The notes beneath the pieces are model-generated. The model worked only from the letters and a program-made list of their open reading frames with translations, was not told the DNA's origin and did not search any database. From Anaerohalosphaeraceae bacterium (lineage in GTDB: Bacteria > Planctomycetota > Phycisphaerae > Sedimentisphaerales > Anaerohalosphaeraceae), in contig JBNRMN010000085.1 in assembly GCA_050309605.1 (NCBI GenBank), forward strand, positions 1-25,107: a DNA stretch of 25,107 nt, written 5' to 3'. The stretch's first letter is position 1. Every line of letters begins with the position of its first letter. This document shows, piece after piece, positions 7,735 to 25,107 of this stretch. A program made the translations under genes and the position numbers.

Positions 7735-7742
7735 GAATTGAT

Positions 7743-8096: not shown

Positions 8097-8322
8097 AGAA
8101 CAATATGAAAACGTCTGCAAGGACGAGTTTGCCGGGCTGCATGATAAGCTGGACAAGATGGACGAAGCCATCCGCGGCAACGGCAAGCCGGGGATTCAGG
8201 TCCGCCTGGACCGGCTGGAGCAGGAACGGCTCAGCCGCAGCAAGGTGGCGTGGTTTGTTATCGGCTGTATCACGACGTTGGCCGGTTCGATTGCCACATC
8301 GTGGATTGTGAGGACGCTATGA
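8086..8322 (+). CDS. Small phage membrane protein (coiled coil + one C-terminal TM helix)
   Basis: LHDKLDKMDEAIRGNGKPGIQVRLDRLEQ then hydrophobic VAWFVIGCITTLAGSIATSWIV. AGGAG at 8074-8078 favours the GTG start at 8086. Confidence 0.7.
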   Translation: MTCKEQYENVCKDEFAGLHDKLDKMDEAIRGNGKPGIQVRLDRLEQERLSRSKVAWFVIGCITTLAGSIATSWIVRTL

Positions 8323-8741
8323 AAATCGCCATTGATATTGCTGATGCGGTCGCTGCCGAGCTGGCGAACTTGCCTTTGACCATTCATCGCCGTGTCCTGC
8401 CGGAATACGAGTTGGCCGAACTGAAGAGCCTGACGGTTACCGTGGTGCCCAAGTCGGTCGAGATCGCCTATGTCACACGGGATGCGACCGGTTATGAGGT
8501 GGCGATAGACATCGGGATTCAGCAAAAGATCGGTAAGGACACCGATGCGGAGGTCACACGGCTAAGCGACGTTGTCAGTGAGATCGTATCGTTCCTGAAC
8601 CGTCGTTCGTTGCCGACGCTCAAGGCGCGGTTTAAGGCCCTCGTCAACGAGCCGGTCTATGCCCCGGAAATGCTCCGTGAAAAACGGCTGTTTTTGTCCG
8701 TGGTCACCGTAACCTATCTTTGTCAGGAGGTGGTACGATAA
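8319..8741 (+). CDS. Putative phage tail terminator / neck protein; last codons altered by the IS110 insertion
   Basis: ATGA overlap with the previous gene. IADAVAAEL, RRVLPEYEL, IDIGIQQK, EPVYAPE and FLSVVTVTY. The terminal VVR* is read from IS sequence. Confidence 0.6.
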   Translation: MKIAIDIADAVAAELANLPLTIHRRVLPEYELAELKSLTVTVVPKSVEIAYVTRDATGYEVAIDIGIQQKIGKDTDAEVTRLSDVVSEIVSFLNRRSLPTLKARFKALVNEPVYAPEMLREKRLFLSVVTVTYLCQEVVR

Positions 8742-8745
8742 ATCC

Positions 8746-9015
8746 TGAATGAGGTTGAGCCGATATTTTTTCTTTCTTTTTTCCCCGGTTTGGGGTGAGG
8801 GGAAAAAAGCGAAAAAATATCTTCTTGACAGCATTCGTTGGCGTTTTAACTTCGATTTTACGAATCGGAGTAGAATAGGTTTCAGGCTGCATGATTCGTA
8901 TGGGGCATCGACCTCGAACAGGAGAATATTCAGACCTGTAACCGAACCGGCCACAATAAGGCATTGCGACCTTGTATAGGAGAATGGTGGACGCCGACAG
9001 TGAAGTCTACTCCAG
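8746..9015 (+). ncRNA. Candidate IS110 bridge RNA
   Basis: Structured left end: hairpin 8762-8821, enclosing stem 8867-8874/9006-9013, and two internal arms (8878-8943, 8948-8996). The arms contain CAGGAG (equal to the left target flank) and ATAGGAG (equal to the right-end donor sequence). RNA ends are approximate. Confidence 0.6.
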
Positions 9016-9050
9016 ACAATGGAAACCATGAATGTTTAGGAGAACGCACA

Positions 9051-10064
9051 ATGAGTTATCTTGGAGTAGACTTGCACACGAACAGTTTTACGGTGTGCCA
9101 TCGGACCAAGCAGGGAAAGCAGCGTATTGCAACGTATGCCATCGACCGGATGGATCGGTTTGGCAAGACCTTGCGGAAACGGGACGACGTGGCCGTGGAA
9201 GCGACCGGCAATACGGCGTGGTTTGTCGAGCAGATTCGGTCGTCTGTCAGAAAAGTGATTGTGGTGGATCCGAACCAGTTTAAGGTGATTCGTCAGTCGG
9301 TAAAAAAGACGGACAAACACGACGCCAGGGCATTGGCGTTATTTTTGAGCAAAGGCATGTTGCCTGAGGCACGTATGAAAGAAAAAAAGAACACCCAGTT
9401 GCATTCATTGGCCGCCACGCGGGACAAGCTGGTCAAACAGCGAACGGCGTTGGCAAACAAGGTGCATAATGTCCTGAACAGTTACGGCCTGAAATGGAAA
9501 AAAGAGACACTGACAACAGAAAAGGGTCTCAAGAGTATTTTGTCCTTTGACTGGGACACAATTGTACGGGTCGAGCTGGAGGTGCTGACCGATCAGATTC
9601 GGTCGCTGACCCGAAGCATCAAGCGTTTGGATGCGGACATTGCTGAACACGGCAAGGTGCTGAAAGGCCATGAAAACCTCAGCAGTATCAAGGGTATCGG
9701 CGAAAAGTCGGCCACCGTGCTGCTCAGTGTCATCGGCAATGTGAAGGATTTTGCCAATGAAGACAAACTGGCGTCGTATTTCGGGATTGTGCCGCGCGTC
9801 AAGGATTCCAATGAGATCGTACGGCATGGGCGGATCACCAAACACGGCTCGACCCTGGCTCGCACGACATTGGTGCAATGCACCTTGTCGGCCAAACGGT
9901 ACAGTCCCTATTTGAGGCAGTATTATGAACGGATCAAGCGAACACGCGGCAGCGGCAAAGCGATCATTGCCACCGCACGGAAACTGCTTGGGATCATCTA
10001 CAAAACCCTGACACATGACTGGGTGTTTGAGGACTTCCCAAACTTTGTGATCGCAACACGTTAG
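9051..10064 (+). CDS. IS110 family transposase/recombinase (DEDD RuvC-like + Transposase_20)
   Basis: YLGVDLH, VAVEATG, KKTDKHDA, SIKGIG, YFGIVPRVKDS, GRITKHG and AIIATARKL. AGGAG RBS before ATG 9051. Confidence 0.95.
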   Translation: MSYLGVDLHTNSFTVCHRTKQGKQRIATYAIDRMDRFGKTLRKRDDVAVEATGNTAWFVEQIRSSVRKVIVVDPNQFKVIRQSVKKTDKHDARALALFLSKGMLPEARMKEKKNTQLHSLAATRDKLVKQRTALANKVHNVLNSYGLKWKKETLTTEKGLKSILSFDWDTIVRVELEVLTDQIRSLTRSIKRLDADIAEHGKVLKGHENLSSIKGIGEKSATVLLSVIGNVKDFANEDKLASYFGIVPRVKDSNEIVRHGRITKHGSTLARTTLVQCTLSAKRYSPYLRQYYERIKRTRGSGKAIIATARKLLGIIYKTLTHDWVFEDFPNFVIATR

Positions 10065-10115: not shown

Positions 10116-13100
10116 ATGTTCCATCTGACTTTACGAGTGCCTTGGCATGACCGCCAATGGGATGGTTGTGTTTGTGACAAACCGTTACAGAACTCCTTTT
10201 GCGTTGCGCTTGACCGTATCCGTGTGGAGCGAGACGAAATAGCGGAAGACAAAATCAAGGGGCAGCACTTTCGTGATTTGAGTCAGCATGAACTGCCTGC
10301 CTGTAAAGCCGAGTCCGGATACTTCATGAGTCCACACTCATGGTTACGCGAGTTTAAACATCCCTATAGCCAAAACAAAAAAGCTCAGGCAACCCACGGC
10401 AATTTGGAGAAAACGAGCATTCCTGTCCCTGAGTATTCAACATTTGCTGTTCCCTTTGCATGGATGCTGCGAAAAAATCAGAAGCAGCTTGAGGCGGGCC
10501 TCCCCAACCCACTGCCACCCGACGAGAAACCTCCCTTCGAGACTCCTTGGGTATTCGGGCGTTCCCGACAGGAGGCGATTTCTGATCTGATGTTCGGGCG
10601 GATCACGGATGATAAGTCACTGGTGTTCTTTTACACCAAGGAAGGACATCCTCTTGGCGACAATCTACCACGCCTAGTAATCGGCGTTGGGCGAGTGTTG
10701 AGAGTTGGGAAATTGTTGTACTATGAATCTTCGGGTAAGACCACCTACCCTCTGTGGGACCGCATCATCCGCCACTCAATCCGAACTGATGGCCATGACG
10801 GCTTTCTTCTGCCGTATCACGACTATCTTAAACTTACGGGAGACCCCGAGGAAGACGCTCGCAGACGTGAACTCCTTCTGGAGATAGCTGTAGCCGTCGA
10901 TTGGGGACACATGAAGGAGTTCTCGCACGCGGCAGAATTGGCTCCGCCTGGCACCGCTCTTTCTACGCTGACTCGATGCCTCGCTGCAGTGCGTCTTATC
11001 CGAAAGCACGGAATTGCGGAAGGCCCCTGGGATCGGCATGAGGAATGGCTTAATCAGCAAATCGCGGATGTGTGGCAAGATCGCGGTGCATTTCCGGGTA
11101 CTGGGTCCGCCCTTGAAGCACTAGGAATGAGGTTGGGCACTTCTCTGTACTTCGAATTGCTGGCCATGGGGGCCGTGCAACCGAGCGATAACCCGTGGAC
11201 CGTGGTAGATGCAATCTTACGCGGCAAAAAAAATCCTCCCCAGACAGCGTATTCCGGTGACATCAAAGCCATTCGCTCGACATGGGAAGGGCTATCCGCC
11301 GAACGACGAGCTCTACTGGAACTCCTTTCTCGTTTCGACTTGACTCCTGGGCAGGCACAGCGGTGGTTCGACCCAAACAAAAGAGCTAATGCTACTCATG
11401 CTCAGATAACGGACAGGGAAATACTGGAAAACCCGTATCGTACAGTGGAGGCAGACCTGGGTGATCATGAAAACGTGCCAGTAAGCATAGGCATGGTCGA
11501 CCGCGGCCTCATGCCAGATAGTTCAATTGCGGCAAAGCACCCAGTACCTGCACCTTCATCGGTTGATTCTCCATTAGATAAGCGACGTGTTCGAGCTGCC
11601 TTAGTCTCTATCCTTAAATCGGCAGCCAATGAGGGGGACGCCCTCATGGGCATTAGCGAAATTTTAGAGCGGATGCCGAAAATCGACTTGTCTCAGCCCT
11701 GCAATGTTGGAATGGATTGGTTAAATGCGAATAAAGGTTTTCTCTCAGAGGTCGTAGAGACGGTCGATATCACTGTCAAATCCGGAAAGACAGAGAAACT
11801 AATTCCATCATTACAACTCACTGAATATCGCAAACAAGAAGATAGGCTGCGTAACGTCCTTCATGCCCGCGCGGAAAGAAAAACGGTCACAGTGAAAACT
11901 AGTTGGGCGGCTTTACTCAAAAAGGCCATTCAAGATGCTGGAGGGGCATACGACCCAAAGAATCCCCGTCACACCGCTGCACTTAAAGAGCAGACAGACG
12001 CACTGGCCTGCATCATTGATAGAAAGCTGACCGTCCTGACCGGAAAAGCCGGTACAGGCAAGACATCTGTGCTGGGTGCATTGTTGCTTTGCGATGATAT
12101 TATCAAGGACGGCATTCTGTTATTAGCCCCGACGGGTAAAGCACGTGTGCGACTTGGTCGCGCTACAAACGCTGAAGCAATGACGGTTGCCCAGTTCTTG
12201 AACAGTCTCGGACGGTATGATGGAGTCAGGCAAAAACCTCTGCTTGTCGGCAAGGACAAGTACAGGAAGGAGAAAACAGTTGTTATTGATGAAGCATCGA
12301 TGCTGACAATGGATACCCTCTTGGCCGTATTGGAAGCATTAGACTTGGCACATGTCCAGCGACTGATCCTTGTTGGCGATCCCAATCAATTACCACCCAT
12401 TGGGGTCGGAAGACCCTTTGCGGATTTAGTTGCTAGTTTTGAAAGTGCATTGGCGTCAAATGACCCTTTAATTCAGAATCGCGGATTAGCAATGGCTCGT
12501 CTATCTGTTGAAGTGCGAGCTGTGGCTGGTGCACCTTCTGGCACGCTTCGCCTGGCATCGTGGTTCACACGCGAGCCACAAATGGTGGATGCAGACCGCA
12601 TTCTAAGCGACATAGAAATGAATGGGGCTTTTAATGATTTAGAACTCTGTTTTTGGAAAACTCCCGAGGAACTTCGCTCAAGATTCATGGAGCAATTCAA
12701 GAAGCAATTTGGGATAAATAATGAGAAGGACGTTGATAATTTTAACCTCGCTTTGGGTTTCAACCCTGAAGGATGGATGCCATTTGATGCCCCAGAAGGT
12801 GCAGAGAACTTCCAGATACTCTCTCCTGTGCGTATGCACCCATACGGTGTGCGTGAGATCAACAGATGGGTACAGCGATCCTTTCGAATGGATAAGCTGC
12901 AAAAGGCGAGAGCATTTCGGGGAACAAGTCTGGGTGATGAGGAAATTGTCGTTAGCGATAAAGTTATTCAGCTCGATAACGGAACCAGATATGCTTATGA
13001 CGGAAATGGCCAATTGGAAGTATATCTTGCCAACGGAGAAATCGGAGTTGTGTGCCCTGGCAAGGCAGGATGGGTAAATGTGGTTTTCAGCGGAAGAAAG

Positions 13101-13805
13101 AATATTAGGGTCGGATACAGCAAGCGAGATTTTCCACAAGGAAGTGGACCATTGGAACTTGCATACGCGCTTACTGTTCATAAGGCGCAGGGCAGTGAAT
13201 TCAAGAAGGTGTTTGTTGTTATCCCCAGAAAATGTAGACCCTTGTCCAGAGAACTGCTTTATACTGCACTGACAAGGTCCCGCGAGAAGCTCGTTCTATT
13301 AATCGAAGGGAATGATGGCTCTTGTTTGTATGATTTTTCTCGACCGGAAAAATCTGAAACTGCAAGAAGAAACACCAACCTGTTTACGAGTGCTGTCCGT
13401 GATCAAGCAGAGACAGTCCCTTACGTTGAACATCTCATACACCGTACCGAGAAGGGGCATATGGTTCGCAGCAAATCGGAACTTGTCATTGCGAATATTC
13501 TATTCCACATAGAAGGCCTGCGTGACTACGAATATGAGCGAGTTTACGAGGGAATCACTGTACCCGGGAAGATGCGTCCCGATTTTTCTTGGGTCACTCC
13601 CGCAGGTGACCTACTGATCTGGGAACATTTAGGGATGTTGGGACGCGACGACTATCGAATAGCTTGGGAATGGAAAAAGGATTGGTATGAGAAGAATTGT
13701 TTTCAAGTCGGTAAGAATCTGTTTACAACACAAGAGGATAATGGTGGCAGACTTAATTCTCAAGAAATCATATCTGTTGCAAGGATAATAGAAAAAATTC
13801 TTTAA
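10116..13805 (+). CDS. Large RecD-like SF1B helicase with long N-terminal extension and C-terminal PD-(D/E)XK-like nuclease domain
   Basis: Helicase motifs GKAGTGKT, LLAPTGKA, VIDEASM, LVGDPNQLPPIG, LANGEIG, AYALTVHKAQGSEF and LLYTALTR. C-terminal VRSKSELVIAN...YEYE...PDF...IWEHLGM. Confidence 0.88.
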   Translation: MFHLTLRVPWHDRQWDGCVCDKPLQNSFCVALDRIRVERDEIAEDKIKGQHFRDLSQHELPACKAESGYFMSPHSWLREFKHPYSQNKKAQATHGNLEKTSIPVPEYSTFAVPFAWMLRKNQKQLEAGLPNPLPPDEKPPFETPWVFGRSRQEAISDLMFGRITDDKSLVFFYTKEGHPLGDNLPRLVIGVGRVLRVGKLLYYESSGKTTYPLWDRIIRHSIRTDGHDGFLLPYHDYLKLTGDPEEDARRRELLLEIAVAVDWGHMKEFSHAAELAPPGTALSTLTRCLAAVRLIRKHGIAEGPWDRHEEWLNQQIADVWQDRGAFPGTGSALEALGMRLGTSLYFELLAMGAVQPSDNPWTVVDAILRGKKNPPQTAYSGDIKAIRSTWEGLSAERRALLELLSRFDLTPGQAQRWFDPNKRANATHAQITDREILENPYRTVEADLGDHENVPVSIGMVDRGLMPDSSIAAKHPVPAPSSVDSPLDKRRVRAALVSILKSAANEGDALMGISEILERMPKIDLSQPCNVGMDWLNANKGFLSEVVETVDITVKSGKTEKLIPSLQLTEYRKQEDRLRNVLHARAERKTVTVKTSWAALLKKAIQDAGGAYDPKNPRHTAALKEQTDALACIIDRKLTVLTGKAGTGKTSVLGALLLCDDIIKDGILLLAPTGKARVRLGRATNAEAMTVAQFLNSLGRYDGVRQKPLLVGKDKYRKEKTVVIDEASMLTMDTLLAVLEALDLAHVQRLILVGDPNQLPPIGVGRPFADLVASFESALASNDPLIQNRGLAMARLSVEVRAVAGAPSGTLRLASWFTREPQMVDADRILSDIEMNGAFNDLELCFWKTPEELRSRFMEQFKKQFGINNEKDVDNFNLALGFNPEGWMPFDAPEGAENFQILSPVRMHPYGVREINRWVQRSFRMDKLQKARAFRGTSLGDEEIVVSDKVIQLDNGTRYAYDGNGQLEVYLANGEIGVVCPGKAGWVNVVFSGRKNIRVGYSKRDFPQGSGPLELAYALTVHKAQGSEFKKVFVVIPRKCRPLSRELLYTALTRSREKLVLLIEGNDGSCLYDFSRPEKSETARRNTNLFTSAVRDQAETVPYVEHLIHRTEKGHMVRSKSELVIANILFHIEGLRDYEYERVYEGITVPGKMRPDFSWVTPAGDLLIWEHLGMLGRDDYRIAWEWKKDWYEKNCFQVGKNLFTTQEDNGGRLNSQEIISVARIIEKIL

Positions 13806-13855: not shown

Positions 13856-14350
13856 ATGAGCAAACCATTCAATTTAAAAGTTAAGAAGCAAAAAACTACT
13901 GCGCAATCAAAAGTTCCTATTATTTGTGCTGTCCACAAGGAATTGAAAGCATGCTTTAATGGATGGAAAGGTCAAGCTAAACGACGACGAAAAAAATTCC
14001 ATTTGACCTTCCAAGACATACAGCAGATATGGATAGCGCAGAACGGGCATTGTGCTGTTACTGGTCAAGCCATGACTTTTACAAAGAAAGACGTCAATAA
14101 AGTTTCTCTCGATAGAGTGGATTCAAGTGGTGATTACAGTTACAACAATGTGCGGATGGTGGCCGTGAAGGTAAATTATGCTCGACATACATATTCCGAT
14201 GATGATCTTCGGACAATTCTTAAGGATATGGAACATATCGATAGGTTGCGTAAGGCCTTGAGTGGCGGAAAGAACTGGTTCAAAAGAGCTGTTTTGCTGC
14301 CGGAGTACATTAAAATTTTTGGCCGACCGAATTCCGCTAACCGTCGATGA
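13856..14350 (+). CDS. HNH/His-Me finger-like endonuclease
   Basis: QNGHCAVTG...VSLDRVDSSGDYSYNNVRMVAVKVN pattern; basic N-terminus. Confidence 0.65.
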   Translation: MSKPFNLKVKKQKTTAQSKVPIICAVHKELKACFNGWKGQAKRRRKKFHLTFQDIQQIWIAQNGHCAVTGQAMTFTKKDVNKVSLDRVDSSGDYSYNNVRMVAVKVNYARHTYSDDDLRTILKDMEHIDRLRKALSGGKNWFKRAVLLPEYIKIFGRPNSANRR

Positions 14351-14383: not shown

Positions 14384-15091
14384 CTATAGAACGATTCCGG
14401 TAACCACTAAGCCGAGAGCGTACCCCAGACCAATCAAGTTTGCCAATGTGGGAGGTAGATCCCGCTCAAGCCCGATGCGGTGGACATCTACCCCCCTGAC
14501 CCTCATGGCCAGCCACAGGTCGTCAAGCTTAACCATCACGCCGACGAGCAGCGGAACCAGGAGTGCAGATAGGTTACGAGGAAGATGCTTCATCCGCTGT
14601 AGGCCCCGTTCCCGGCCCAGCCCGCGAGCACGCTGTGCGACTATGATACGACGTGTCTCCTCGAAGATGACAGGCAGAAAGCGTAGCCCCATGCCAATGG
14701 CCAGACAGAATGTCTTCGGCAACCGCAGCCACCGCAATCCCGCAACGATATCGTAAGGACGAGTCGCGACGAAGAACGCGATACAGATACCCCCAACCGC
14801 CATCCACCTCGCAACCGCAACGCCAGCAGCCAAGACTCCTGCTTTGGTGGGGTCGCCCGCGACGGCCAGCCCGAAGAAGACCATGAGAACAACTACGAAC
14901 ATCGGAATCGCCCGGAGATATGGGGAACGGTCCACTCGGCACAATACCAATGCCGCGACAGCCGAGATGAGGAGCCACCCAACGAGAACCACACTGTTCG
15001 TAAAGGCGGCAATAGAATACGCTATCAGAAGGGATAGTTTTACCCTATAGTCGGTTTCGCCAACAACGCGATGGAAGACGCCACTCACCAC
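14384..15091 (-). CDS. ECF transporter transmembrane T component (EcfT/CbiQ family)
   Basis: Several TM helices, LRFLPVIFEETRRIIVAQRARG and AMRVRG (the two Ala-Arg-Gly-type motifs). Confidence 0.9.
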   Translation of the reverse strand: MVSGVFHRVVGETDYRVKLSLLIAYSIAAFTNSVVLVGWLLISAVAALVLCRVDRSPYLRAIPMFVVVLMVFFGLAVAGDPTKAGVLAAGVAVARWMAVGGICIAFFVATRPYDIVAGLRWLRLPKTFCLAIGMGLRFLPVIFEETRRIIVAQRARGLGRERGLQRMKHLPRNLSALLVPLLVGVMVKLDDLWLAMRVRGVDVHRIGLERDLPPTLANLIGLGYALGLVVTGIVL

Positions 15092-16524
15092 TCATCACCT
15101 TCACTTAGGCCAAAATGGCGATGAACTTCGCCAATCACCTCGTTCGTTGGACCGGAACAGGTGATGCGCCCATCGGATAGCAGAACAAGGCGGTCGGTCT
15201 CTTGCCTGATGAGTTGAAGATCATGGGTCGCAATAACAAACACCGTCCCCTTAGTCTTCTGCCATTCATGGATTAGACGCTTCAGAGCGGCCCTGTGGTA
15301 TAGGTCAAGGCCAAGCTCGGGTTCGTCAAGCAGCACCACATCGGGTTCTAACACAAAGGCACATGCAAGCGCTAGAATCTTCTTCTGGCCATACGAGAGT
15401 GTGTGTGGATCACGCTCCAGATCGCCAAGCCCAAAGAACTCCTGTCCCCACTCAATCCGACGTTCAATCTCTGTGGGCGAAACAGAATGGTTTTCAAGAC
15501 CGAAACGCAGTTCCTCACGTATCGAGCGAGCGAACAATTGATGGTTCGGATTCTGAAAAACGATTGCCGTCCGATGGCCGGGCTTGGAGGAGTTGACGGA
15601 TATAAGGCTCCCACCTCGTCTTGCCCGAGCGAGGCCCCCGAGGAGGCAGAGCAACGTGGACTTTCCGCTGCCGTTGGCTCCTACTAACCCTAGCGTAGAG
15701 CCATGAGCGACCGATAGTGGTTGGGCAAGGTCAAGCCTAAAACGTCCACCACGGTATGCGAACTCCATCCTCTCGCACAACACGAGTTCGGGGCCAGCCG
15801 GCGTGGCCCTACCGAGAGATGGCTGCGGATGAGCATCGTCTGGTTCAATATCGAACAAATCAGCCAGAGCGACAGGGGACAAACTCGTGCCACTCGTGTC
15901 CAGTCGCAATGTACCACACTTGAGGCCCAGAACGCGATCTGCGATCTCGAATACGCCAGTGGGGCGTTGGCTAAGCAGCAGCAGCTGCACGCCAGACGCG
16001 CGGAGTGATTTCAGAAGACGTGTCAATTGCCTTTGAGAAGGCGGGTCAAGTGTCGTACCGGGCTCATCAAGCACCAAGCATCGCGGCTTTCTCGCGACCG
16101 CGATAGCAAGTGCCGCTTTTTGCCGCTGTCCCATGGAAAGCTCTGCTGGGGACCGGTCCATCAAGTCTTGAAGCTGGAAGTGCTCAACAACTTCGAGGTC
16201 GGGAAACTCGTCCGCAAGGCGTAGAGAGAAAAACTGCGCATCACAGTCTTGAAACAGAATGCCCACCTTCGCAAGCCACGCCTCGGTCGATGTCGTCGAC
16301 AGCAAAGCTCCATCAACGCGGACCTCACCATCCACTGTTCCGTCCATTAACCGTGGCAGAATGCCAGTTACAACGTATCCGAGCGAACTTTTTCCAGAGC
16401 CATTCCGGCCCAACACGGCAACAGATTCGCCCCGGTCGAGAGTAAAGCTTACTTCACGGAGTACTGACTCTCCAGTTCCTGTTGACTCATAGGAGGCGTG
16501 GCGAATGTCAACGGTCAGGCTCAT
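15085..16524 (-). CDS. ECF transporter fused double ATPase (A-A')
   Basis: Two ABC domains: GRNGSGKS/LSMGQRQK/LVLDEP and GANGSGKS/FQNPNHQLF/LSYGQKK/LLDEP/IATHD. Confidence 0.9.
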   Translation of the reverse strand: MSLTVDIRHASYESTGTGESVLREVSFTLDRGESVAVLGRNGSGKSSLGYVVTGILPRLMDGTVDGEVRVDGALLSTTSTEAWLAKVGILFQDCDAQFFSLRLADEFPDLEVVEHFQLQDLMDRSPAELSMGQRQKAALAIAVARKPRCLVLDEPGTTLDPPSQRQLTRLLKSLRASGVQLLLLSQRPTGVFEIADRVLGLKCGTLRLDTSGTSLSPVALADLFDIEPDDAHPQPSLGRATPAGPELVLCERMEFAYRGGRFRLDLAQPLSVAHGSTLGLVGANGSGKSTLLCLLGGLARARRGGSLISVNSSKPGHRTAIVFQNPNHQLFARSIREELRFGLENHSVSPTEIERRIEWGQEFFGLGDLERDPHTLSYGQKKILALACAFVLEPDVVLLDEPELGLDLYHRAALKRLIHEWQKTKGTVFVIATHDLQLIRQETDRLVLLSDGRITCSGPTNEVIGEVHRHFGLSEGDEW

Positions 16525-17077
16525 CCCGCTCCTTCCTTAAGGTCGCGAAGACGCGTAACTGTGCCAACTTGGACTCGTATAGCCAGCGCCCTAGTACGGC
16601 CCCCAGAAGACCGAGGACGAATTGAGCTCCGGCCAAAGTGAGAAGAAGTGGTCGTAGCTTTTCCACGCCCGGAAGCCCGAGCAGGCTTATGGCCGCGAAG
16701 ATGGTCACAATGCTCGTCGTTGCAGCAGCTCCGCCGCCGAGGTAGACCGCCCATCGCCGGCGTTGCCCGATGGCGACAGCGATATCGTACACAAGGCCGA
16801 TAGCGAGACCAATCATTGGCTTGTAGATGCCCGGAGGTCCACCGATCACCGTTGGGATCGCAAGGGAAAACGTCACCAGCATCATCAAGGTCGCGCTACC
16901 AAACCGCGGCACGGCTTGAGCGCCGATCACTGCAATCGCAACACAAACGAAGATGTTGAGCAGTCCGCCAGTTGCAGGAATTCCAGTGGCCAGAATAAGG
17001 CCAGTGCCGAGAACAAAGGCAATAGCAAAGGTCGCGGCCCCAAATACACCGCATGCAGCAGCTTGCTTGGAAGTCAT
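16508..17077 (-). CDS. ECF transporter substrate-binding S component (substrate unknown)
   Basis: 189 aa with about 6 TM helices and a PRFGSAT motif; directly upstream of and overlapping the ATPase gene. Confidence 0.75.
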   Translation of the reverse strand: MTSKQAAACGVFGAATFAIAFVLGTGLILATGIPATGGLLNIFVCVAIAVIGAQAVPRFGSATLMMLVTFSLAIPTVIGGPPGIYKPMIGLAIGLVYDIAVAIGQRRRWAVYLGGGAAATTSIVTIFAAISLLGLPGVEKLRPLLLTLAGAQFVLGLLGAVLGRWLYESKLAQLRVFATLRKERDEPDR

Positions 17078-19293
17078 GACGTCTCCTTTGGCGGGTCAAT
17101 GCTAGTCCCATCGTAGTACAAGGTAATAGGTCCATCTGCGGAAACGCACAAGACCACAACTCTTGACGTATCGTTTGGTTTCGACATACTGAGAAGACGA
17201 GCAGATGTGTGTCGTGCGCCATTCTTCAGAGTCTTTGCTTCCCGCTCCGAGCCATACCACTGCTTATCGTTAGACGAAATCGCAGGCATCAAGTACCTCC
17301 GGCCAAGTACCAACGACTGATCATCTACGCATAAGACAACTGCTCCGTCCTCGATTGCGAGGTGATAAAGATCATCCTCATAAGAGTCCTCCAATTTGTA
17401 TCGCTCGAAATACACCCGTGTCATCGGATAGCTCAATTGATCAGCCTCAGCGACTGAGCTGACGAGAACAAATGCACCTCCCTGCTTATTATCCACTAAT
17501 TTCTCGATGACCCGATAAAGGACCTTACACCATTGTGGGAGATCGTCGCTCGATAATGTCGTATCGAAATATCGCTCATATGCCTTCTTCACCGCTTCCC
17601 ATGGCTTCCACTGCCTTCTTTCCGCGAAGCGGTCGCCAGTCCACTGACCACGCTGGACCTTAATGCCTCCTCCAGGATGGGTACATTTTATGCGATAAAC
17701 GCCTTCCGAGCCGCACTCATAAACGACAAGCGCGGGATTGCGCTTACACAACTCTTCGATAACTTCATACCGAGTGCGGAGTTGAGCCGGAAACAGAAAC
17801 CCGCGATCAAAAGTAGCTCTATGCAAAGATATAGTATCTCCGTCTGTCTGAGCCCAAAGAACAGCATCACGCTGTTGGAAAAATGAGTAGTTGCCAAGAA
17901 TTGCGCAAGCGACTCGCTCATAGTGAATTTCATGGTCAGTACATTCAGGATGTGTAGAGCATTTCCGGGACACTTCTTCAGGCGGACTCGGATCAGGACG
18001 TAACTTATGATTCTGCACTGGACATGGCTGTAATATCTCGGGTTCGCGGTCCTGCCCTTCGTTGAGGTAGTAGGTCAAGCGGTCATCTCTCACGGGCTTG
18101 TTTGTAGCCTGTCCATTAGAAAGATGGCCGCTATTCGCATGACTGTCTTCGTAGTCGAGCGGGGGGAGCGAACAGCGAAGACCATTGTGTACGGCAGACG
18201 GCAAGCCCGTCACGACGTGGAAGGACAGAGCCTGGCCTTCATGCTTCTGCCGCGAAAGCTTCTCTGCAAGCCTCAGCACTGAAAGTTCTGCACCAGGAGC
18301 AAAATCGCCCAGTTGTGGTTCTTTGGTTCCGTACACGTAATCGAAGATTTCGTGAAAGACATCGCTGTGCATTTTGTAAAATTCTTGGCTGGCTGACGTT
18401 CCCCGCTCAATAGCCAGATTGACAGAGCACCACGGCCAGACCAGCCGATAGCCACCGTTTCGATTCTTTCCTGGCGGATAGAGTAGCAGGAAACCACTAA
18501 GGCTCTTGTTCGTTTTGCGGGTAAGGTACTCCAGCCAGAAAATGCTTGATTGGAGAAGCTGAAGCAACGGATCGATGCTTTGCCTAAATTCATTCTCATC
18601 CATAGGATCTCGGGGCGGATAGGTAGTCCTCCCGGGTGCACCAAAAACTTCAATTGCTGAGAACTCATTCAGGAAGGTGAGGATCGGCTGGTATTCGCAA
18701 GCGTTAGCGGAGTGGCACATAGCTAAGTAGGTATCGAGCCTTGCCTTGCGCAGGACATCCTTAGAATCTGACTGGTCGGTATTATTGTTCGTAATTTGGC
18801 AAATAAAATCACCCAAAAGAATCTCTGCCAGCTTGGCAGGGTATTCTATTGTCAGGCTGTCTTTATCTTTTTGCACATATCGCTGCCTAGCCTCAGTCGT
18901 TCGCTGCAATATCACGGTTGCTGGGGCTTCATGTGTCTCTTTGGAGGAATTCAGCCAGCCCCGTCGAAAGAAGTCAGTCATTACTTGAGTAAACCGATAG
19001 GCAGGATCAAATGCACCGGTCAATCGCTCAAACAACTCCCACTCCTGCTGTGGATAAATCGCCCAGATACTCCCATGGTGGGATAGCGAACGGTAGTGCC
19101 AACAACCCGCAACAATCGCGTCACACAGAACATCCGGAAAACAAGCTTGGGCGAATTCTTGGTCTCTATTCATCTGGATATCCGACAATAGTCTCTCAAG
19201 AGCACGATATGGCGGGATCTGCTCTTTTTCGACTATAACACGCGATTGCGAGATTAACTGGGCGATGCGCTCACGCATGGAGTCCGCTGCCAT
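17074..19293 (-). CDS. Large protein with C-terminal diadenylate cyclase (DisA_N/DAC)-like domain and unrecognised N-terminal region
   Basis: QGGAFVLV, LAIEDGAVVL (DGA motif), GARHTSA (RHR-like motif) and VSADG. Start re-assigned to ATG 19293 (TGATG overlap with the upstream stop, GGGAG RBS). Confidence 0.78.
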   Translation of the reverse strand: MAADSMRERIAQLISQSRVIVEKEQIPPYRALERLLSDIQMNRDQEFAQACFPDVLCDAIVAGCWHYRSLSHHGSIWAIYPQQEWELFERLTGAFDPAYRFTQVMTDFFRRGWLNSSKETHEAPATVILQRTTEARQRYVQKDKDSLTIEYPAKLAEILLGDFICQITNNNTDQSDSKDVLRKARLDTYLAMCHSANACEYQPILTFLNEFSAIEVFGAPGRTTYPPRDPMDENEFRQSIDPLLQLLQSSIFWLEYLTRKTNKSLSGFLLLYPPGKNRNGGYRLVWPWCSVNLAIERGTSASQEFYKMHSDVFHEIFDYVYGTKEPQLGDFAPGAELSVLRLAEKLSRQKHEGQALSFHVVTGLPSAVHNGLRCSLPPLDYEDSHANSGHLSNGQATNKPVRDDRLTYYLNEGQDREPEILQPCPVQNHKLRPDPSPPEEVSRKCSTHPECTDHEIHYERVACAILGNYSFFQQRDAVLWAQTDGDTISLHRATFDRGFLFPAQLRTRYEVIEELCKRNPALVVYECGSEGVYRIKCTHPGGGIKVQRGQWTGDRFAERRQWKPWEAVKKAYERYFDTTLSSDDLPQWCKVLYRVIEKLVDNKQGGAFVLVSSVAEADQLSYPMTRVYFERYKLEDSYEDDLYHLAIEDGAVVLCVDDQSLVLGRRYLMPAISSNDKQWYGSEREAKTLKNGARHTSARLLSMSKPNDTSRVVVLCVSADGPITLYYDGTSIDPPKETS

Positions 19294-20070
19294 CACAATC
19301 TCCCTGATGAGCCATGTGTCAATACTCCGCATTCAACCTTTTGCCTATGTGAAAGATGCCGCTCAAACCAGGAATGGAAGACGGCCCACCACTCTTCAAA
19401 CAACGAACGAGGATGGTCGCCAACATCGTAACCTTGCTTGAGTAGAGCGAGTTGACCTTCACGGATGTAAGAGAAAACCGTCAACACCTCATGTAACGAG
19501 GATCGAGTTAAGTTCCGTTCATCCAAAGCATGAGTCATCAAGGTCGGGACGCGAAGCTTTGAGATTGCACGGCAAGGGTCATATTCCCAGTCAATCGCAT
19601 CCGGGTCCCATCGCACCTTGTGTTCGGACATCATGGTCAGTGCCCGTTGCTTGACCTTGTTCGGCATGAACACCAAGCCATATATGGCGAGTGCCTTGAT
19701 CGGGTGCTTCTCTCCGCGGATCAGGTAATCCATGGCGGCATACGTTCCCGTGCACTGCGCAAGCATGACCTGTCGGTTCGCGTCAACAGCTGGATGGTCT
19801 TGGCATGCGGCCACAACAGCAGCCAAGTCTTCGGTAGCGTTCTGTACAGAAAGCATCCCACCGGCTGCCTCCCTGTCCTCTGAAATTGCAGAACACGGCC
19901 GTATATCCGTTATCGGCGATGACATTGGCCATCGTGCGGATGTAGGGAAGAACGCCGTAAGCGTTTCCCGCCATGAAGACGACTGGACAAGGGCCAGTGA
20001 CACCCCGGCCGGGTATAAGCCATGTTTCTATCGTCTCACCATGAGACACAACGTGAATGTGTTCACTCAT
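19293..20070 (-). pseudogene. Alpha/beta hydrolase with AQCTG nucleophile elbow, split by one extra base near 19863 (pseudogene or sequencing error)
   Basis: Frame 1 (start 20070) runs PVVFMAG...ADNGYTAVFCNFRGQGGS. Frame 2 continues GGMLSVQNATEDLAAVV...VDANRQVMLAQCTG...VPTLMTHALDE. The minus strand reads GGC AGC C GGT GGG ATG. Confidence 0.8.
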
Positions 20071-20864
20071 TTGGCTTTCTCCAGACAGCGGATAGTCCTT
20101 GCAGAGTCACGTCTGTTCGGCCTTCTCGCTCTTGTCGAACCTTGCTTTCTGCTAGCGTCCGCCAGTATTTTATTAAAGACTTCTATCAATTTTCCGTAAA
20201 GTTATAGGAGACGATTTTATGGGACCCTTCTCCCATCGATTCGCGGTGGATCACGTCACACCGACCTTAGCCGCGAACCCGCTTCTGGGTTAATCCAAGC
20301 TAGACTCGCAACTTCCAGATTATCTCCGCTATTGCGCCGTTGTTATCTTTCGGCATTCAAATCATTCTGTCCTTGGCTGTGAGACTCCGTAAATCTCGAA
20401 AGTCCTCGCAAATAATAGGCGCATTATAGGGCATGCAAAATCGCTGTCAATCGAATTCTCCACCGGTCGTGGACCGTGGACTGCTCGAACGTCGCGGCGA
20501 ACATGAAGAACCCGTCCGCGATATCTTTCTTGAAAATGTGAAAGTTGATAAGACCACCGAGAGGGCAAAAACTTAGAAATGCCGAAAATATTCTGGAAAA
20601 GAATGTTCGATTCTGAAACCAAATAGTCAGACCCTAAAAGATATCCTGAATTTGCCTGAACGATATTTCCATTATACTGGATTCAGTTTTACACCAAAAT
20701 AACGTTCAGCGGGCGGTACTGTTGCAGCCCACCGTTATTCTGCACTCTCAAGCTGTTAACTGCCCAAGAAAAAAATGTCTTGATGCTTAATTCTGTCAAC
20801 TATCAGAGCAAATATAAGTCCATTCTTTACATGGCTTTATGTAACATACTTCGGTTTGAAAGTC

Positions 20865-20885: not shown

Positions 20886-20916
20886 GCCCTCTACAAACCC
20901 GTAGAGGGCTTTTTTT
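20886..20916 (+). terminator. Rho-independent terminator (likely the original tRNA terminator)
   Basis: GCCCTCTAC-AAACCC-GTAGAGGGC followed by TTTTTTT. Confidence 0.88.
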
Positions 20917-21076: not shown

Positions 21077-21592
21077 ATGTCCAAAAAAGATGAATTTGTC
21101 GGTTATTTTATCAAATATCAGCAGCATCTGTTTAACTTTATACTGACATTAGTGCCCAATTACTCGGATGCGGAGGATATTTTGCAAAAATCAGCCAGCA
21201 TTATGTGGGATAAGTTTGACACCTTTGACAGCAGCACCCTTTTTTTGACGTGGGCGCGGAAAATTGTCAGATTTAATATATCCAATTATTACAGAACAAA
21301 AAAGAAAGAGTACCGGCTTGACGATGATCTTCTTGAGCGTCTGTGTTCGGTTCACCAAGAGGCGTCGGTGTATTTCGAAGAGCAACGCGCGGCACTGAAA
21401 ATTTGCATGAGCAAACTCGATCGAACAGATCGACATTTATTGGAGTTGCGGTATTATCAACGTGTTTCGGTACAGGACATCGCCCGAAAATTTAATAAGC
21501 CGGCCCATTTTCTTTATCGGCGGATTTCTATGATTTTTGTTTCACTGCAACGCTGTATAACCCGCGCGATGATGTCAGGGGATGTGGTATGA
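21077..21592 (+). CDS. ECF RNA polymerase sigma-70 factor, Planctomycete/Verrucomicrobia type
   Basis: LFNFILTLVPNYSDAEDILQ...WDKFDTF...FLTWARKIVRF...ALKICMSKL...LLELRYYQ...LQRCI. Confidence 0.9.
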   Translation: MSKKDEFVGYFIKYQQHLFNFILTLVPNYSDAEDILQKSASIMWDKFDTFDSSTLFLTWARKIVRFNISNYYRTKKKEYRLDDDLLERLCSVHQEASVYFEEQRAALKICMSKLDRTDRHLLELRYYQRVSVQDIARKFNKPAHFLYRRISMIFVSLQRCITRAMMSGDVV

Positions 21593-23253
21593 ATTCGCTT
21601 GATGTGAGGCAGTTGTACACTTTGATTACCGCTTCGGTTGAAGGAGACATTACGCCGGAGCAGTTTTTGCACTTGAAGGAATTGCTATGCGCTCATCCTC
21701 AGGCGATGCGCTATTATGTGGATTATATATCGATCCTGTGTCATATCCGCTCAAGTGATTCCGTTGACCAGATGACCGGTTCGGATGCGTTTGATGAGGC
21801 GTTTTGGGAACTGCTTTTGCAGCATGAAAACACCGCGCCGGCCATTGATCTGCCGCGGTCGTGTACGCCGCCTGAACCCGCGCTCGTCAGTCCGCAGGAT
21901 CGGCCGACCGGCAATCGGCGCATTTCAAAATCGTCAATTATTTCTTTGATCGTATCGACCGCGGCGATCCTTTTTCTTGTTTTGTTTGCATGGTTTGCGC
22001 CGCCCAAGTCAGGGATTTCGGTTGCCACCTTGAAAGACAGCCTGAACGCCAAATGGGCCGATCCGCCACAGTTGATGCGCCATGGAACACGACTTCAGAC
22101 CGGCTCGGAGATGCTGCTGCTTCGGGATGGGCTTGCGACCCTGGTCTTTGATAATGATGCCACGATAGTGCTGGAAGGGCCGGCGGAATTTCAAATTCTG
22201 ACCAGCGATCAAATCAACCTCAATTACGGACGGATTTACGCCATTATCCCGCCGCAGGCCTATGGTTTTCTGGTCAATACGCCGACTGCCAAGATCATTG
22301 ATTTGGGGACGGAGTTCGGCGTTCAGCAGGATATGCACGGAAACACGGAGCTGCACGTTGTTCGCGGCAAGACAAGCCTTGTTTCAGGGGTCAAAGGGAG
22401 CCGAATCAATGTGTATGTCGAAGCGGGAGCCGCCAAACGACTTGATGTCAGGGCCGGACAAATTGAAGACGTCGCTTGTGACACCACGCTGTTTGCCCGT
22501 CGTATCGATTCCGACACACAATTTGTTTGGCGGGGTCAGAACAAGCTGGACCTGGCCGATATTGTCGGCGGCGGCAACGGATTCGGGACAGGACAACTCG
22601 ATACAGGAATCAATCCGACCTCCGGCAGGCCGGCGTCGGTACTTCTTGAGACACAATCTGCACCCAATGACTTTCGTCCGGTGTTATTTAATCCCTATAT
22701 TGACGGAGTTTTTATTCCCGACGGACGGACGCCACAGATTATCAGTTCCGAGGGACATCTGTTTGAAGCCTGTCCGCCCACAAGCGGTCATTGCTTTAAC
22801 AATGTCCTCAATACGGTAAGACTTTATGATTTTCAGGCCTTTCGGGGCATGCCGCAGCCAAGCGGCCCCAGCGCGTTCAAATGTTTACTGCTGCATGCCA
22901 ATATCGGCGTTACTTATGACCTTCAGGCCTTGCGTGCGCTCTTGCCGGACGTCAATTTTGTTCGTTTTGTATCCCGATTCGGCATTGAAAAAGAAGCGAT
23001 GCGTCCTGCGCTGAGCAATGCTGATTTCTGGATATTGGTCGATGGTCGGCTGCAATACAAGAAAACCCAAGTGGGGTGGGGAGAATTTTACGATATTGAG
23101 CTGCCGCTTTCCGAGCAGAATCGTTTTTTGACTCTTGTCGTGACCGATGGTCAGGATCCCAATGAGCGTTTTTATGAGAACCGGGACTATCCGCCGATTG
23201 ACAGCGATTGGGGGATGTTTGTTGATCCGGTTCTGATTTTGGAATCGGAATGA
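21589..23253 (+). CDS. FecR-domain anti-sigma factor with C-terminal NPCBM/NEW2-like domain
   Basis: ATGA overlap with the sigma gene; one TM helix; LEGPAEF, VNTPTAKIIDLGTEFGV and ELHVVRG; C-terminal ADFWILVDG...RFLTLVVTDG...DWGMFVDPVL. Confidence 0.85.
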   Translation: MNSLDVRQLYTLITASVEGDITPEQFLHLKELLCAHPQAMRYYVDYISILCHIRSSDSVDQMTGSDAFDEAFWELLLQHENTAPAIDLPRSCTPPEPALVSPQDRPTGNRRISKSSIISLIVSTAAILFLVLFAWFAPPKSGISVATLKDSLNAKWADPPQLMRHGTRLQTGSEMLLLRDGLATLVFDNDATIVLEGPAEFQILTSDQINLNYGRIYAIIPPQAYGFLVNTPTAKIIDLGTEFGVQQDMHGNTELHVVRGKTSLVSGVKGSRINVYVEAGAAKRLDVRAGQIEDVACDTTLFARRIDSDTQFVWRGQNKLDLADIVGGGNGFGTGQLDTGINPTSGRPASVLLETQSAPNDFRPVLFNPYIDGVFIPDGRTPQIISSEGHLFEACPPTSGHCFNNVLNTVRLYDFQAFRGMPQPSGPSAFKCLLLHANIGVTYDLQALRALLPDVNFVRFVSRFGIEKEAMRPALSNADFWILVDGRLQYKKTQVGWGEFYDIELPLSEQNRFLTLVVTDGQDPNERFYENRDYPPIDSDWGMFVDPVLILESE

Positions 23254-23422
23254 AGATAAATGGCACAAATCCAATTGTTCGATCAATCGAAGAAAGGAGG
23301 TTGACGTCAAAGACATTGAAATGTGGAGTTAAGTATGATCCGTAGGAAAGTGATTGTTTGGGTAGGGATACATTAAAATGTGGGTATTTGCCCGAAACTT
23401 AAATTTTTTGGAGGTTTGAAAG

Positions 23423-24079
23423 ATGAAAAGAGTATTGGTTCTTTCAATGGTGGCTGTGTTGGCCACAGCGGTACAGGCGGTTGACATCTCATCGTCGTTC
23501 ACTAATCTGGATTTTGACAGCGGAATTACTCATATTGCCACTGGATTTGACAATCCGAATGCAGATATCATTGGCTGGAGCGACTATCCTGCCCACCCTT
23601 TGACTGACGCAGGGGTTGAAGGACCCAGTGCCTGGTGGCTTCCTGATGATTATGCTTATGGGCAGGCGGCCTTTATGGGGCCCGGCGACGGCGCCTACAA
23701 CATGAGCAATTACGTCATTCAGGCTGATGATGTATTTACCATTAGCTATTTGGCCGGCGTGTGGGGTTGGCAGGGTAACGGAGACGGGAGAGGTGAGTGG
23801 ACGGCCACCTTGTTCTATGACGATCCCGCCAATGTAATCGGAAGTTACGTACAGGACTTTGTCTGGGTTTCGTTGGGTGATGGGGTCTGGTATTCTGACC
23901 CTGTCGGAATCGCGGCAACGCCTGAATCGGTCGGTGGTACACTCGGCATTCTTTTCCAGAATACGACGGGTGACAAGATCTCACAGATCGATGAAATTAG
24001 CGTGACGGTCATTCCGGAGCCGGCAACGATGGCTCTGCTGGGCCTGGGTTCTCTGGTAATAGCCCGAAAACGCAAATAA
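23423..24079 (+). CDS. PEP-CTERM sorting domain secreted protein
   Basis: Signal peptide MKRVLVLSMVAVLATAVQA and C-terminal VIPEPATMALLGLGSLVIARKRK. Confidence 0.92.
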   Translation: MKRVLVLSMVAVLATAVQAVDISSSFTNLDFDSGITHIATGFDNPNADIIGWSDYPAHPLTDAGVEGPSAWWLPDDYAYGQAAFMGPGDGAYNMSNYVIQADDVFTISYLAGVWGWQGNGDGRGEWTATLFYDDPANVIGSYVQDFVWVSLGDGVWYSDPVGIAATPESVGGTLGILFQNTTGDKISQIDEISVTVIPEPATMALLGLGSLVIARKRK

Positions 24080-24111
24080 GTGGTTATGAATGAAGTCTTT
24101 TTAGTCGAAAT

Positions 24112-24143
24112 TCTGCTGATGGTTCTCAAGGACCATCAGCAGA
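24112..24143 (+). other. Intergenic stem-loop without U-tract
   Basis: TCTGCTGATGGT (24112-24123) / ACCATCAGCAGA (24132-24143), a 12-bp perfect stem. Confidence 0.6.
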
Positions 24144-24227
24144 TCGGCTGAAAAAGCGTGTATCAGATCATGAAAAGTAAAATCGTGCTACTAAGTATCA
24201 ATTTATTCTTTTAGTAGGAGAATTAAA

Positions 24228-25107
24228 ATGAAAAAAGTATTAGTTCTATTAATGGCGGCTGCGTTGGCCACAGTAGTACAGGCGGAAGAAGACATCTCAT
24301 CGTTATTCACTAATCTGGATTTTGACAGCGGAATTACTCATATTGCCACTGGATTTGATAATCCGAATGCAGATATCATTGGCTGGAGCGACTATCCTGC
24401 CCACCCTTTGAATGACGCAGGGGTTGAGGGACCAAGTGCCTGGTGGCTTCCTGATGATTATGCTTATGGGCAGGCGGCCTTTATGTCTCCGGGCGACGGC
24501 GCCTACAACATGAGCAGTTACGTCATTCGGTCCGGTGATGTATTTACCGTTAGTTTTTTGGCCGGCGTGTGGGGTTGGGAAGGTAGCGGAGACGGGAGAG
24601 GTGAGTGGACGGTTACCTTGTTCTATGACGATCCCGCCAATGTAATCGGAAGTTTCGTACAGGAATTTACCAATGTGGGGTTGGGAGATGTGGTCCGGTT
24701 TACTGACCCTGACGGGATCACAGCCACTCCTGAATCGGCCGGCGGTACACTCGGCATTCTTCTCCAGAATACGACGGGTGACAAGATAGCGCAGATCGAT
24801 GAAATCACCGTTAGTTTTGTTGGGACCATAGGACCTTATGATCCTGTGGTTAAGCCGGAAAATCCCGAAGGTTCAGTCGGTGTACTCATCAACAATGAGC
24901 AGGCCGAGGTCACACTGAGTTGGAAGGCCGGAGCCGATCCGGACGAAGAGCGGGGATATCCGGTTGACCCGGATATTCTGGGCCATTACATTTTTCTTTC
25001 CAGCGGCAATCCGGGCGACGATCCCAACGTTCATTTGATTGATTATGTCCCCCAGGTTCATGCGGAAGACCCGTATGAAACCGATCCGTACAATGAGTAT
25101 GGTCCGA
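24228..25107 (+). CDS. Secreted multidomain protein (runs off the window); N-terminal domain is a near-copy of the preceding PEP-CTERM protein
   Basis: AGGAG RBS, MKKVLVLLMAAALATVVQAEEDISSLFTNLDFDSGITHIATGFDNPNADIIGW..., open to the window end. Continues VTLSWKAGADP...HYIFLS instead of PEP-CTERM. Not in the ORF track because it has no stop. Confidence 0.88.
   Translation, partial: MKKVLVLLMAAALATVVQAEEDISSLFTNLDFDSGITHIATGFDNPNADIIGWSDYPAHPLNDAGVEGPSAWWLPDDYAYGQAAFMSPGDGAYNMSSYVIRSGDVFTVSFLAGVWGWEGSGDGRGEWTVTLFYDDPANVIGSFVQEFTNVGLGDVVRFTDPDGITATPESAGGTLGILLQNTTGDKIAQIDEITVSFVGTIGPYDPVVKPENPEGSVGVLINNEQAEVTLSWKAGADPDEERGYPVDPDILGHYIFLSSGNPGDDPNVHLIDYVPQVHAEDPYETDPYNEYGP

Follow-up and report, generated by a model that had tools for sequence, protein, structure and literature searches.

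Why should a diadenylate cyclase (DAC) be encoded within the same operon as a complete importer of the energy-coupling factor (ECF) type? The question is raised by a stretch of 25,107 nt from an Anaerohalosphaeraceae bacterium (assembly GCA_050309605.1, contig JBNRMN010000085.1, positions 1-25,107; hereafter the window), in which five minus-strand genes at 14384-20070 encode an alpha/beta-hydrolase, a large protein with a C-terminal DAC domain, and the S, AA' and T components of an ECF transporter. An earlier note on this DNA, made without database searches, had proposed the same list of parts, and the coordinates of the open reading frames (ORFs) and the family matches bear it out. DAC enzymes were long seen as a few housekeeping cyclases, and between 2023 and 2026 they have been split into many sensor-bearing families, some of them active in phage defence. 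To these the locus adds an apparently undescribed build, in which a unique module of 330 aa precedes a degenerate DAC and a DAC, and a genomic partner with which no DAC has yet been reported, namely a complete dedicated ECF importer together with a Cys-type hydrolase. The operon suggests that uptake of a compound is wired to nucleotide signalling. The reading that we favour, tentatively and with a probability of about 0.4, is that of an accessory operon linking a dedicated ECF importer to a cargo-sensing sensor-cyclase that resembles the CdaG/DS-2C proteins (Ragucci et al. 2026; Nabhani et al. 2026, bioRxiv).

Domain build of the cyclase

The cyclase gene most likely starts at 19293, which gives a protein of 739 aa (17074-19293) in place of the 752-aa ORF and agrees with the N-termini of three relatives. 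The protein has no membrane segment, and as a whole it finds nothing meaningful in Pfam, NCBIfam, PADLOC, PHROGs or the sequences of solved structures (PDB). The Pfam DAC model (PF02457) appears only in a scan limited to the C-terminal part, and there at 20.1-20.7 bits against a cut-off of 27 (E 5e-4, profile positions 6-118/119). The homology is carried by intermediate sequences. When the domain is compared by hhalign with two relatives that pass the Pfam cut-off, P0048 and P0053, it scores 98.1% if represented by four close sequences and 98.6% if represented by 21; BLASTP aligns it with P0048 at 31% identity over 160 aa (E 2e-13) and returns a further match at E 2e-8, and the family profile reaches Pfam-positive DAC proteins at library-wide E-values of 2.4e-4 and 9.3e-4. 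Among the 22 proteins found by that profile, 18 give a DAC match at E up to 0.01 and four exceed 27 bits (P0035, 28.8; P0047, 35.0; P0048, 58.3; P0053, 43.0). Neither the domain alone nor the cyclase family finds a match among PDB sequences. Judged by these profile and pairwise comparisons, residues 561-739 are a true but divergent DAC domain.

The domain contains the motifs GGAFVL, EDGAVVL, GARHTSA and VSADGPITLY, and direct reading agrees with the earlier claim that DGA is kept while GARHTSA stands in place of RHR. Conservation was counted over 21 full-length family members, which share 15-20% identity with the window protein. D649, G650, G692, R694, S718, D720 and G721 are kept in all 21, A651 in 19 and H695 in 18. 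The RHR site corresponds to R694-H695-T696; its third position is Arg in a single member, so the full RHR motif is absent. The Pfam-positive P0048 and P0053 likewise lack the third Arg, with RHN and RHS at this site. The available part of the crystal-structure paper on PanS (Panoptoo/PanDA) names D71, G72, G107 and R108 of that DAC as forming the active site's fixed floor. Because the floor residues are conserved here, and because the bridging DACs also do without the third Arg, the domain is probably active.

Some 590 residues upstream had been described as unrecognised. This holds for residues 1-334; residues 335-560, by contrast, match the DAC region (hhalign, P 6.4e-7, 21 sequences; score in Table 1), and comparison of the profiles points to a degenerate second DAC-like domain, which is new in this analysis. 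As controls, the N-terminal region scores 0.1% against the DAC and 20 column shuffles score at most 0.4%. The middle region reaches 86.5% when remote relatives alone are used, 0.2% with the four close sequences alone, and 70.9% under a different column rule. In the alignment, HEGQALSFHVV corresponds to GGAFVLV in the first helix-strand element, TRYEVIEELC to ARHTSARLLS in the RH helix, and VVYECGSEGVYRI of the middle domain to VVLCVSADGPITLY of the DAC domain in the last strand. The catalytic residues are gone from the middle domain, which has invariants of its own (H351, E352 and F358 in 21 of 21 members; N468 and Q473 in 19). Look-alikes in the Atlas combine a DAC with DACNH, DACNG, DACNK, DACND or DACNV, a lead only. 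None of the DACN* families of Pfam appears at E up to 10 in pieces of the window protein or at E up to 1 in the 21 relatives, and PF21750 (DACNH) matches neither the window protein nor those relatives. The closest known build is nonetheless that of CdaG/DS-2C, which the available text of the two preprints gives as DACNG-DACNH-DAC, about 550-575 aa long, the DAC being preceded by a DAC-like, non-catalytic DACNH domain (Ragucci et al. 2026; Nabhani et al. 2026, bioRxiv; Galperin 2023, as cited in them). According to the same text, three DS-2C proteins gave nucleotide products in vitro, and for two of them cyclic di-AMP (c-di-AMP) was confirmed by liquid chromatography-mass spectrometry.

The conserved residues of the degenerate domain admit a different explanation of the protein, as a cargo-processing nucleotidyltransferase rather than a signalling enzyme. 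The degenerate domain would pair with the catalytic one within one chain, and its pocket would bind the imported compound, or what hydrolysis makes of it, instead of a second ATP, so that the bound compound is adenylylated in a salvage pathway. H351, E352, N468 and Q473 suggest a second, different ligand site, and the loss of the third Arg of RHR points in the same direction. ECF operons, moreover, often carry enzymes that handle the cargo. A precedent exists in PanS, for which the available part of the paper reports that broken symmetry of the DAC site changes the product. The similarly built DS-2C proteins, however, make plain c-di-AMP as far as the available preprint text goes, and this explanation appears distinctly unlikely to us. 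Its acceptor would also be a novelty, in that we know of no DAC-fold enzyme that uses a non-nucleotide acceptor.

The Cys/His-rich patch that the earlier note had picked out upstream of the DAC domain is present, at residues 381-455, and proves to be a variable insert within the degenerate domain. It is rich in Pro, Glu, Asp, Ser and His, shares 39, 29 and 20% identity with the three relatives, with insertions and deletions, and keeps no more than 5 of its 75 positions unchanged across the four close relatives; given this poor conservation and the length changes, we rejected it as a conserved metal site. Outside the patch, 9 of 18 cysteines are invariant among the same four sequences, and the N-terminal module has C51, C64, H66, C193 and C289, together with W residues, as invariants. 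The N-terminal 334 aa find no match in Pfam, PDB sequences or the Atlas. The core formed by pseudo-DAC and DAC is common with a remote subfamily (hhalign 99.4%, E 4.5e-21), whereas the N-terminal 330 aa score at most 0.8% against the same region of other subfamilies; the N-terminal regions of two remote subfamilies resemble each other at 70.5%. A shared core with an unshared N-terminal region is what one would see if exchangeable sensors were joined to an output part that stays the same. The build that emerges from these comparisons, a family-specific N-terminal module followed by a degenerate DAC and a DAC, appears to be an undescribed one.

The family is very rare, with three close and about 20 remote relatives. 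The close ones, all full-length, come from a set of 5.8 billion proteins and share 53, 47 and 41% identity with the window protein by BLASTP (55, 49 and 44% in the alignment); across the four sequences 238 of 739 positions are invariant, the catalytic ones included. A HMMER pass over 1.84 billion representatives returned 26 proteins at E up to 1e-3, of which only the window's own protein and P0004 lie at E up to 1e-10, and 17 weaker matches of 680-835 aa have the C-terminal 300-400 residues in common. Scans of 185,579 GTDB species genomes gave 65 pattern matches with the four close relatives as query and 398 with five remote relatives, none of which was confirmed. Searches by tblastn found no match for P0001 in plasmids or phages, for P0005 (the S component) in plasmids, for P0046, P0030 and P0047 in plasmids, or for P0046 in phages; nor did the operon DNA match any plasmid. 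A separate observation concerns P0044, a protein of 80 aa whose first ~41 residues repeat those of the close relative P0003 before diverging, so that P0003 itself appears to be truncated or frameshifted in another assembly.

Operon, importer and hydrolase

The five genes overlap at all four junctions, according both to the ORF list and to direct reading of the junctions. At the hydrolase/cyclase junction the stop and start codons share TGATG (19291-19295), with GGGAG 8 nt upstream, and at the cyclase/S junction they share ATGA (17074-17077), preceded by AAGGAG. The overlap of S with AA' is 17 nt long (16508-16524) and that of AA' with T 7 nt (15085-15091), the T gene starting with GTG. Overlapping junctions together with ribosome-binding sites make the operon one translationally coupled unit; the earlier note, too, had taken the overlaps to mean a single unit. 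The left end of the unit faces a convergent plus-strand gene at 13856-14350.

The AA' protein contains two ABC_tran domains in one chain (156.7 bits). Its best named models are ECF_ATPase_2 (240 bits), ECF_ATPase_1 and cbiO (210.8 bits, cut-off 211.8), all under their equivalog cut-offs, and its nearest solved relatives in the PDB are CbiO and EcfA. The T protein has hydrophobic segments, clears the cut-off of 25 bits for PF02361 (CbiQ) and reaches 50.9 bits with TIGR02454, which is under the cut-off of that model. The hydropathy of S fits a multi-pass membrane protein; the window's own sequence matches PF09605 at a sub-threshold E of 0.13 only and finds nothing meaningful among solved-structure sequences. 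It has 24 relatives in the 5.8-billion-protein set, and among 24 aligned members (36-88% identity), the window's included, nine match PF09605 (Trep_Strep; best E 2.1e-8) and nine match TIGR02185, the 'MptD family putative ECF transporter S component' (best E 3.2e-9). We found no account in the literature of the substrate of the MptD/Trep_Strep S family. With S, fused AA' and T all present, the operon encodes a complete ECF importer of the dedicated (group-I style) kind, which brings an energising module of its own. As a further observation on AA', its first nucleotide-binding domain has SQR where the second has THD, which we take to be the canonical H-loop; Walker A and Walker B are intact in both. 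One of the two ATP sites may thus be degenerate, and possibly non-hydrolytic.

The hydrolase is read in two ORFs (19783-20070 and 19293-20003). Taken as one, they correspond to intact relatives of 259 aa (77% identity) and 222 aa (89% identity). Frame A follows these relatives to ...RGQGGS and frame B from GGMLSVQ onwards, and the switch between frames implies that one extra base near 19863 breaks the gene. The frameshift mentioned in the earlier note is thus borne out, since the two frames match successive parts of the intact proteins; it may be a true mutation or an assembly error. The window fragments match no family model above threshold (a weak match to the dienelactone hydrolase model DLH has E 0.026), and the intact relatives score 25.9-27.8 bits with Hydrolase_4 (cut-off 27) and 24.4-24.5 bits with Peptidase_S15 (cut-off 23). 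Against solved-structure sequences there is weak dienelactone-hydrolase and falcipain noise, and nothing more. In all three sequences that cover the site the nucleophile elbow reads AQCTG, with Cys replacing the Ser of G-x-S-x-G. The position of this motif suggests a Cys nucleophile, as in dienelactone hydrolases, and the same reasoning places the candidate acid and His of the triad in ALDERN and GDHP.

Whether these genes belong together can be judged in part from their relatives. An S relative at 88% identity and the cyclase relative P0002 both lie on contigs of 6335 nt, and an S relative at 76% identity, the cyclase relative P0004 and the hydrolase relative P0055 (77%) each lie on a contig of 7935 nt; P0003 is on a contig of 11491 nt, a size that recurs neither among the S relatives nor among those of the hydrolase. 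The equal sizes imply, indirectly, that S and cyclase are linked on at least two other contigs and that the hydrolase joins them on one. The earlier note had allowed that the arrangement might be unique to this genome. Contig sizes, the one line of evidence used here, suggest that it recurs on two others. The GTDB scans, made with cyclase sequences, confirmed no further copy. On what appear to be the same contigs the cyclase is much less conserved than its neighbours: its identity is 53% and 41%, whereas S keeps 88% and 76% and the hydrolase 77%.

This disparity, together with the frameshifted hydrolase, is what one might expect of a chance adjacency or a decaying remnant, in which an ordinary ECF importer of a vitamin or metal happens to follow a fast-evolving orphan gene and a pseudogene. 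We consider this very unlikely. All four junctions overlap, contig sizes imply this pairing on two more contigs even though cyclase identity there is down to 41-53%, and the relatives are full-length and keep their invariant positions, catalytic ones among them.

Upstream of the operon, a promoter-like match that fits 12 of 12 consensus positions, the best in the region, lies about 350 nt before the first ATG. Promoter-like sites in the upstream region number 7, against 6.8 expected from shuffles. Rfam gives nothing for the putative leader up to E 10, and nothing for the window as a whole, and the predicted RNA fold of the leader is unremarkable (z = -0.54); on both grounds a riboswitch in the leader was rejected. 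Further out, a strong terminator-like hairpin at 20886-20909 (plus strand; nine pairs, then seven T) stands within the gap of 1 kb that separates the operon from the gene of an extracytoplasmic function (ECF) sigma factor. No sizeable plus-strand ORF lies upstream of it, and it could end a small RNA or serve the opposite strand.

Table 1. Coordinates of the operon's genes, of the domains of the cyclase and of the upstream features (positions in the window).
Feature	Position	Strand	Basis
alpha/beta-hydrolase, N-terminal 69 codons (frame A, to ...FCNFRGQGGS)	19864..20070	-	aligns with P0055 and P0054
Extra base shifting the hydrolase frame, approximate site	19863	-	frame A/frame B match to relatives
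alpha/beta-hydrolase, C-terminal 189 codons and stop (frame B)	19293..19862	-	matches relatives
Cyclase residues 1-334, N-terminal module	18292..19293	-	family-specific; no database match
Cyclase residues 335-560, degenerate DAC-like (DACNH-like) domain	17614..18291	-	hhalign 92%
Cyclase residues 381-455, variable insert with 'Cys/His patch'	17929..18153	-	alignment to relatives
Cyclase residues 561-739, DAC (DisA_N-type) domain	17077..17613	-	Pfam sub-threshold, hhalign, BLASTP
ECF S component, 189 aa, MptD/Trep_Strep-like	16508..17077	-	hydropathy and family members' matches
Fused double ECF-type ATPase AA', 479 aa	15085..16524	-	two ABC_tran domains
ECF T component, 235 aa, CbiQ family	14384..15091	-	PF02361, 71.3 bits
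sigma-70-like promoter match (TTGACA, 16 nt, TATAAT)	20423..20450	-	consensus match only, 12/12
Putative leader, promoter match to hydrolase ATG	20071..20416	-	no recognised riboswitch

Genomic surroundings and a possible role in defence

To the left of the operon lies a mobile-element stretch (64-10064), whose genes encode a protein of 614 aa with a phage capsid domain at its C-terminus, an AAA_25 primase-helicase-like protein, a protein with sigma-70 region 4, a large serine recombinase and a transposase of the IS110 family. After the AAA_25 gene, an inverted repeat of 30+30 nt in perfect register (3886-3945; 83% complementary, no spacer, ATAAGT-like units) is a possible origin or operator of the element. 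Positions 1-8000 of the window match no phage, and no tRNA, tandem repeat or informative flanking repeat was found in the window. Between this stretch and the operon, a plus-strand gene at 10116-13805 encodes a superfamily 1 helicase of 1229 aa that corresponds over its full length to the PADLOC candidate single-gene defence system PDC-S68 (1392.9 bits); its relatives, at 32-35% identity, occur on 24 plasmids of diverse bacteria and are annotated only 'AAA family ATPase'. The plus-strand ORF at 13856-14350, of 164 aa and with a very low GC3 of 0.39, has its matches in PHROGs among families of phage endonucleases, of endonuclease VII and of HNH proteins (best E 1.9e-17). To the right, the ECF sigma gene overlaps the start of a gene for a 554-aa FecR-like protein with a C-terminal NPCBM/NEW2 domain (21077-23253, plus strand), by its domains an anti-sigma factor with a carbohydrate-binding-type module. 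Beyond it, two tandem PEP-CTERM genes (23420-24590, plus strand) have a 300-nt stretch in common at 93% identity, which points to recent duplication. GC3, the G+C content at third codon positions, is 0.63-0.76 in the left element, 0.39-0.47 in the helicase and endonuclease genes, 0.52-0.64 in the operon and 0.47-0.56 in the right flank; these differences make the region a mosaic, and there is no obvious sign that the operon belongs with the helicase block. The helicase was rejected as a component of the operon's system, since a PDC-S68 relative on a Rhizobium plasmid has unrelated neighbours.

These surroundings bear on whether the operon is itself a defence or conflict system, in which the 739-aa protein would sense infection and make a nucleotide signal, with the hydrolase and/or the transporter as effector, or with the transporter supplying or removing the signal. 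The operon adjoins both the candidate defence helicase and the phage-type endonuclease VII/HNH gene, at the edge of the stretch that holds the phage and mobile-element genes. According to the earlier note, divergent DACs that have large N-terminal sensors are predicted in nucleotide-signalling conflict systems, and the available text of the two 2026 preprints agrees: the closest known build, that of CdaG/DS-2C, is reported there as enriched in defence islands, beside nucleotidyltransferases of the cGAS/DncV-like type (CD-NTases) and effectors of the 2TM-beta type. The rapid evolution of the cyclase relative to its operon partners, the rarity and patchiness of a family that is absent from GTDB species genomes, and a broken hydrolase, such as is common in decaying defence loci, would all suit a protein engaged in conflict.

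Several observations argue against such a role. PADLOC-DB 2.0 matches neither hydrolase fragment, nor the cyclase, S or T, and matches AA' only with 33 generic ABC/AAA models (best mad3, 162 bits); no known effector type is present in the operon; and S is conserved at 76-88%, as for a nutritional function. In GC3 the operon is unlike the helicase and endonuclease block and like the right flank, and the plasmid-borne relative of the helicase in Rhizobium lacks neighbours of this kind. To our knowledge no ECF transporter acts in defence, and the literature that we searched links none to a DAC. The defence flavour of the earlier interpretation has no basis beyond analogy and the proximity of a single candidate defence gene, and we regard a defensive role as doubtful. 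Were it correct, the operon would be the first defence system to use an ECF transporter.

A proposed function and its place among known systems

In the reading that we favour, that of a sensor-cyclase coupled to import, the dedicated ECF importer would bring in a small molecule, which the cytosolic Cys-type alpha/beta-hydrolase could possibly cleave. The compound would then be read by the N-terminal module, by the degenerate DAC pocket, or by both, and this reading would control the pairing or the activity of the catalytic DAC domain. In consequence the synthesis of c-di-AMP, or of a cyclic dinucleotide related to it, would keep pace with uptake, and a nucleotide receptor would presumably respond. 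Several points weigh against this proposal. The DAC domain of the window lies under the Pfam cut-off, and the third residue of its RHR site is Thr. Neither a recognisable cyclic dinucleotide receptor in the operon nor a riboswitch was found. The much lower conservation of the cyclase than of its neighbours fits a conflict protein at least as well, and the frameshift in the hydrolase may mean that this copy of the operon is decaying.

It is also conceivable, if unlikely, that the importer takes up an exogenous molecule, possibly a signal from other cells, which the tandem pseudo-DAC/DAC enzyme reads and converts to a cyclic dinucleotide or, in its asymmetric site of two domains, couples to AMP as a new conjugate. 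Were either true, an ECF transporter equipped with a second-messenger synthase of its own would be seen for the first time, and the DAC fold would gain a new regulatory logic. If the coupling in the favoured proposal is functional, the operon would offer a tractable case of a DAC switched by a small molecule, with S as the handle for naming that molecule, and would provide the first functional context for the orphan MptD/Trep_Strep ECF S components.

The earlier note knew of no described system of DAC, ECF transporter and hydrolase, and our search of full-text literature likewise found no paper that joins a DAC to an ECF transporter; the 2023 catalogue by Galperin, which reportedly covers 22 DAC families, and the supplements of the two preprints were outside that search, and the build may be listed there. 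The word 'transporter' is absent from the two 2026 preprints on defence DACs, so far as their available text extends.

The CdaG/DS-2C proteins are the nearest in architecture. Like them, the protein described here is a soluble multi-domain protein in which a C-terminal DAC follows a domain without catalytic residues that is DAC-like (here apparently residues 335-560), and its DAC is divergent, with DGA and RHR only partly kept. It differs in its length of 739 aa, in having no Pfam DACNG or DACNH match and in an N-terminal region of 330 aa without a detectable relative. It is accompanied by an ECF transporter and a hydrolase instead of a CD-NTase or a 2TM-beta effector, and PADLOC finds no component of a cyclic oligonucleotide-based antiphage signalling system (CBASS). 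PanS offers a second comparison, in that it too is a DAC outside the housekeeping roles of CdaA and DisA and has the same active-site floor of D, G, G and R. It is, however, a protein of about 150 aa without a sensor, constitutively active and paired with a 2TM-beta effector, none of which applies here.

On the side of transport, the locus resembles other dedicated (group I) ECF transporters, in that one operon brings together an S component some 190 aa long, a double ATPase fused into one chain and a T component of the CbiQ type. YkoEDC has a similar build of S, fused ATPase and T. From the MptD/Trep_Strep ECF family the window's S differs in falling under the family models (E 0.13), and no member of that family has been described with a DAC partner. 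Finally, c-di-AMP controls transporters such as OpuC, Ktr and Kdp, and these share with the present operon the tie between the product of a DAC and membrane transport. There, the gene of the cyclase, CdaA or DisA, lies at another site and a known receptor domain belongs to the transporter, whereas here no receptor domain was seen and the cyclase lies inside the operon itself.

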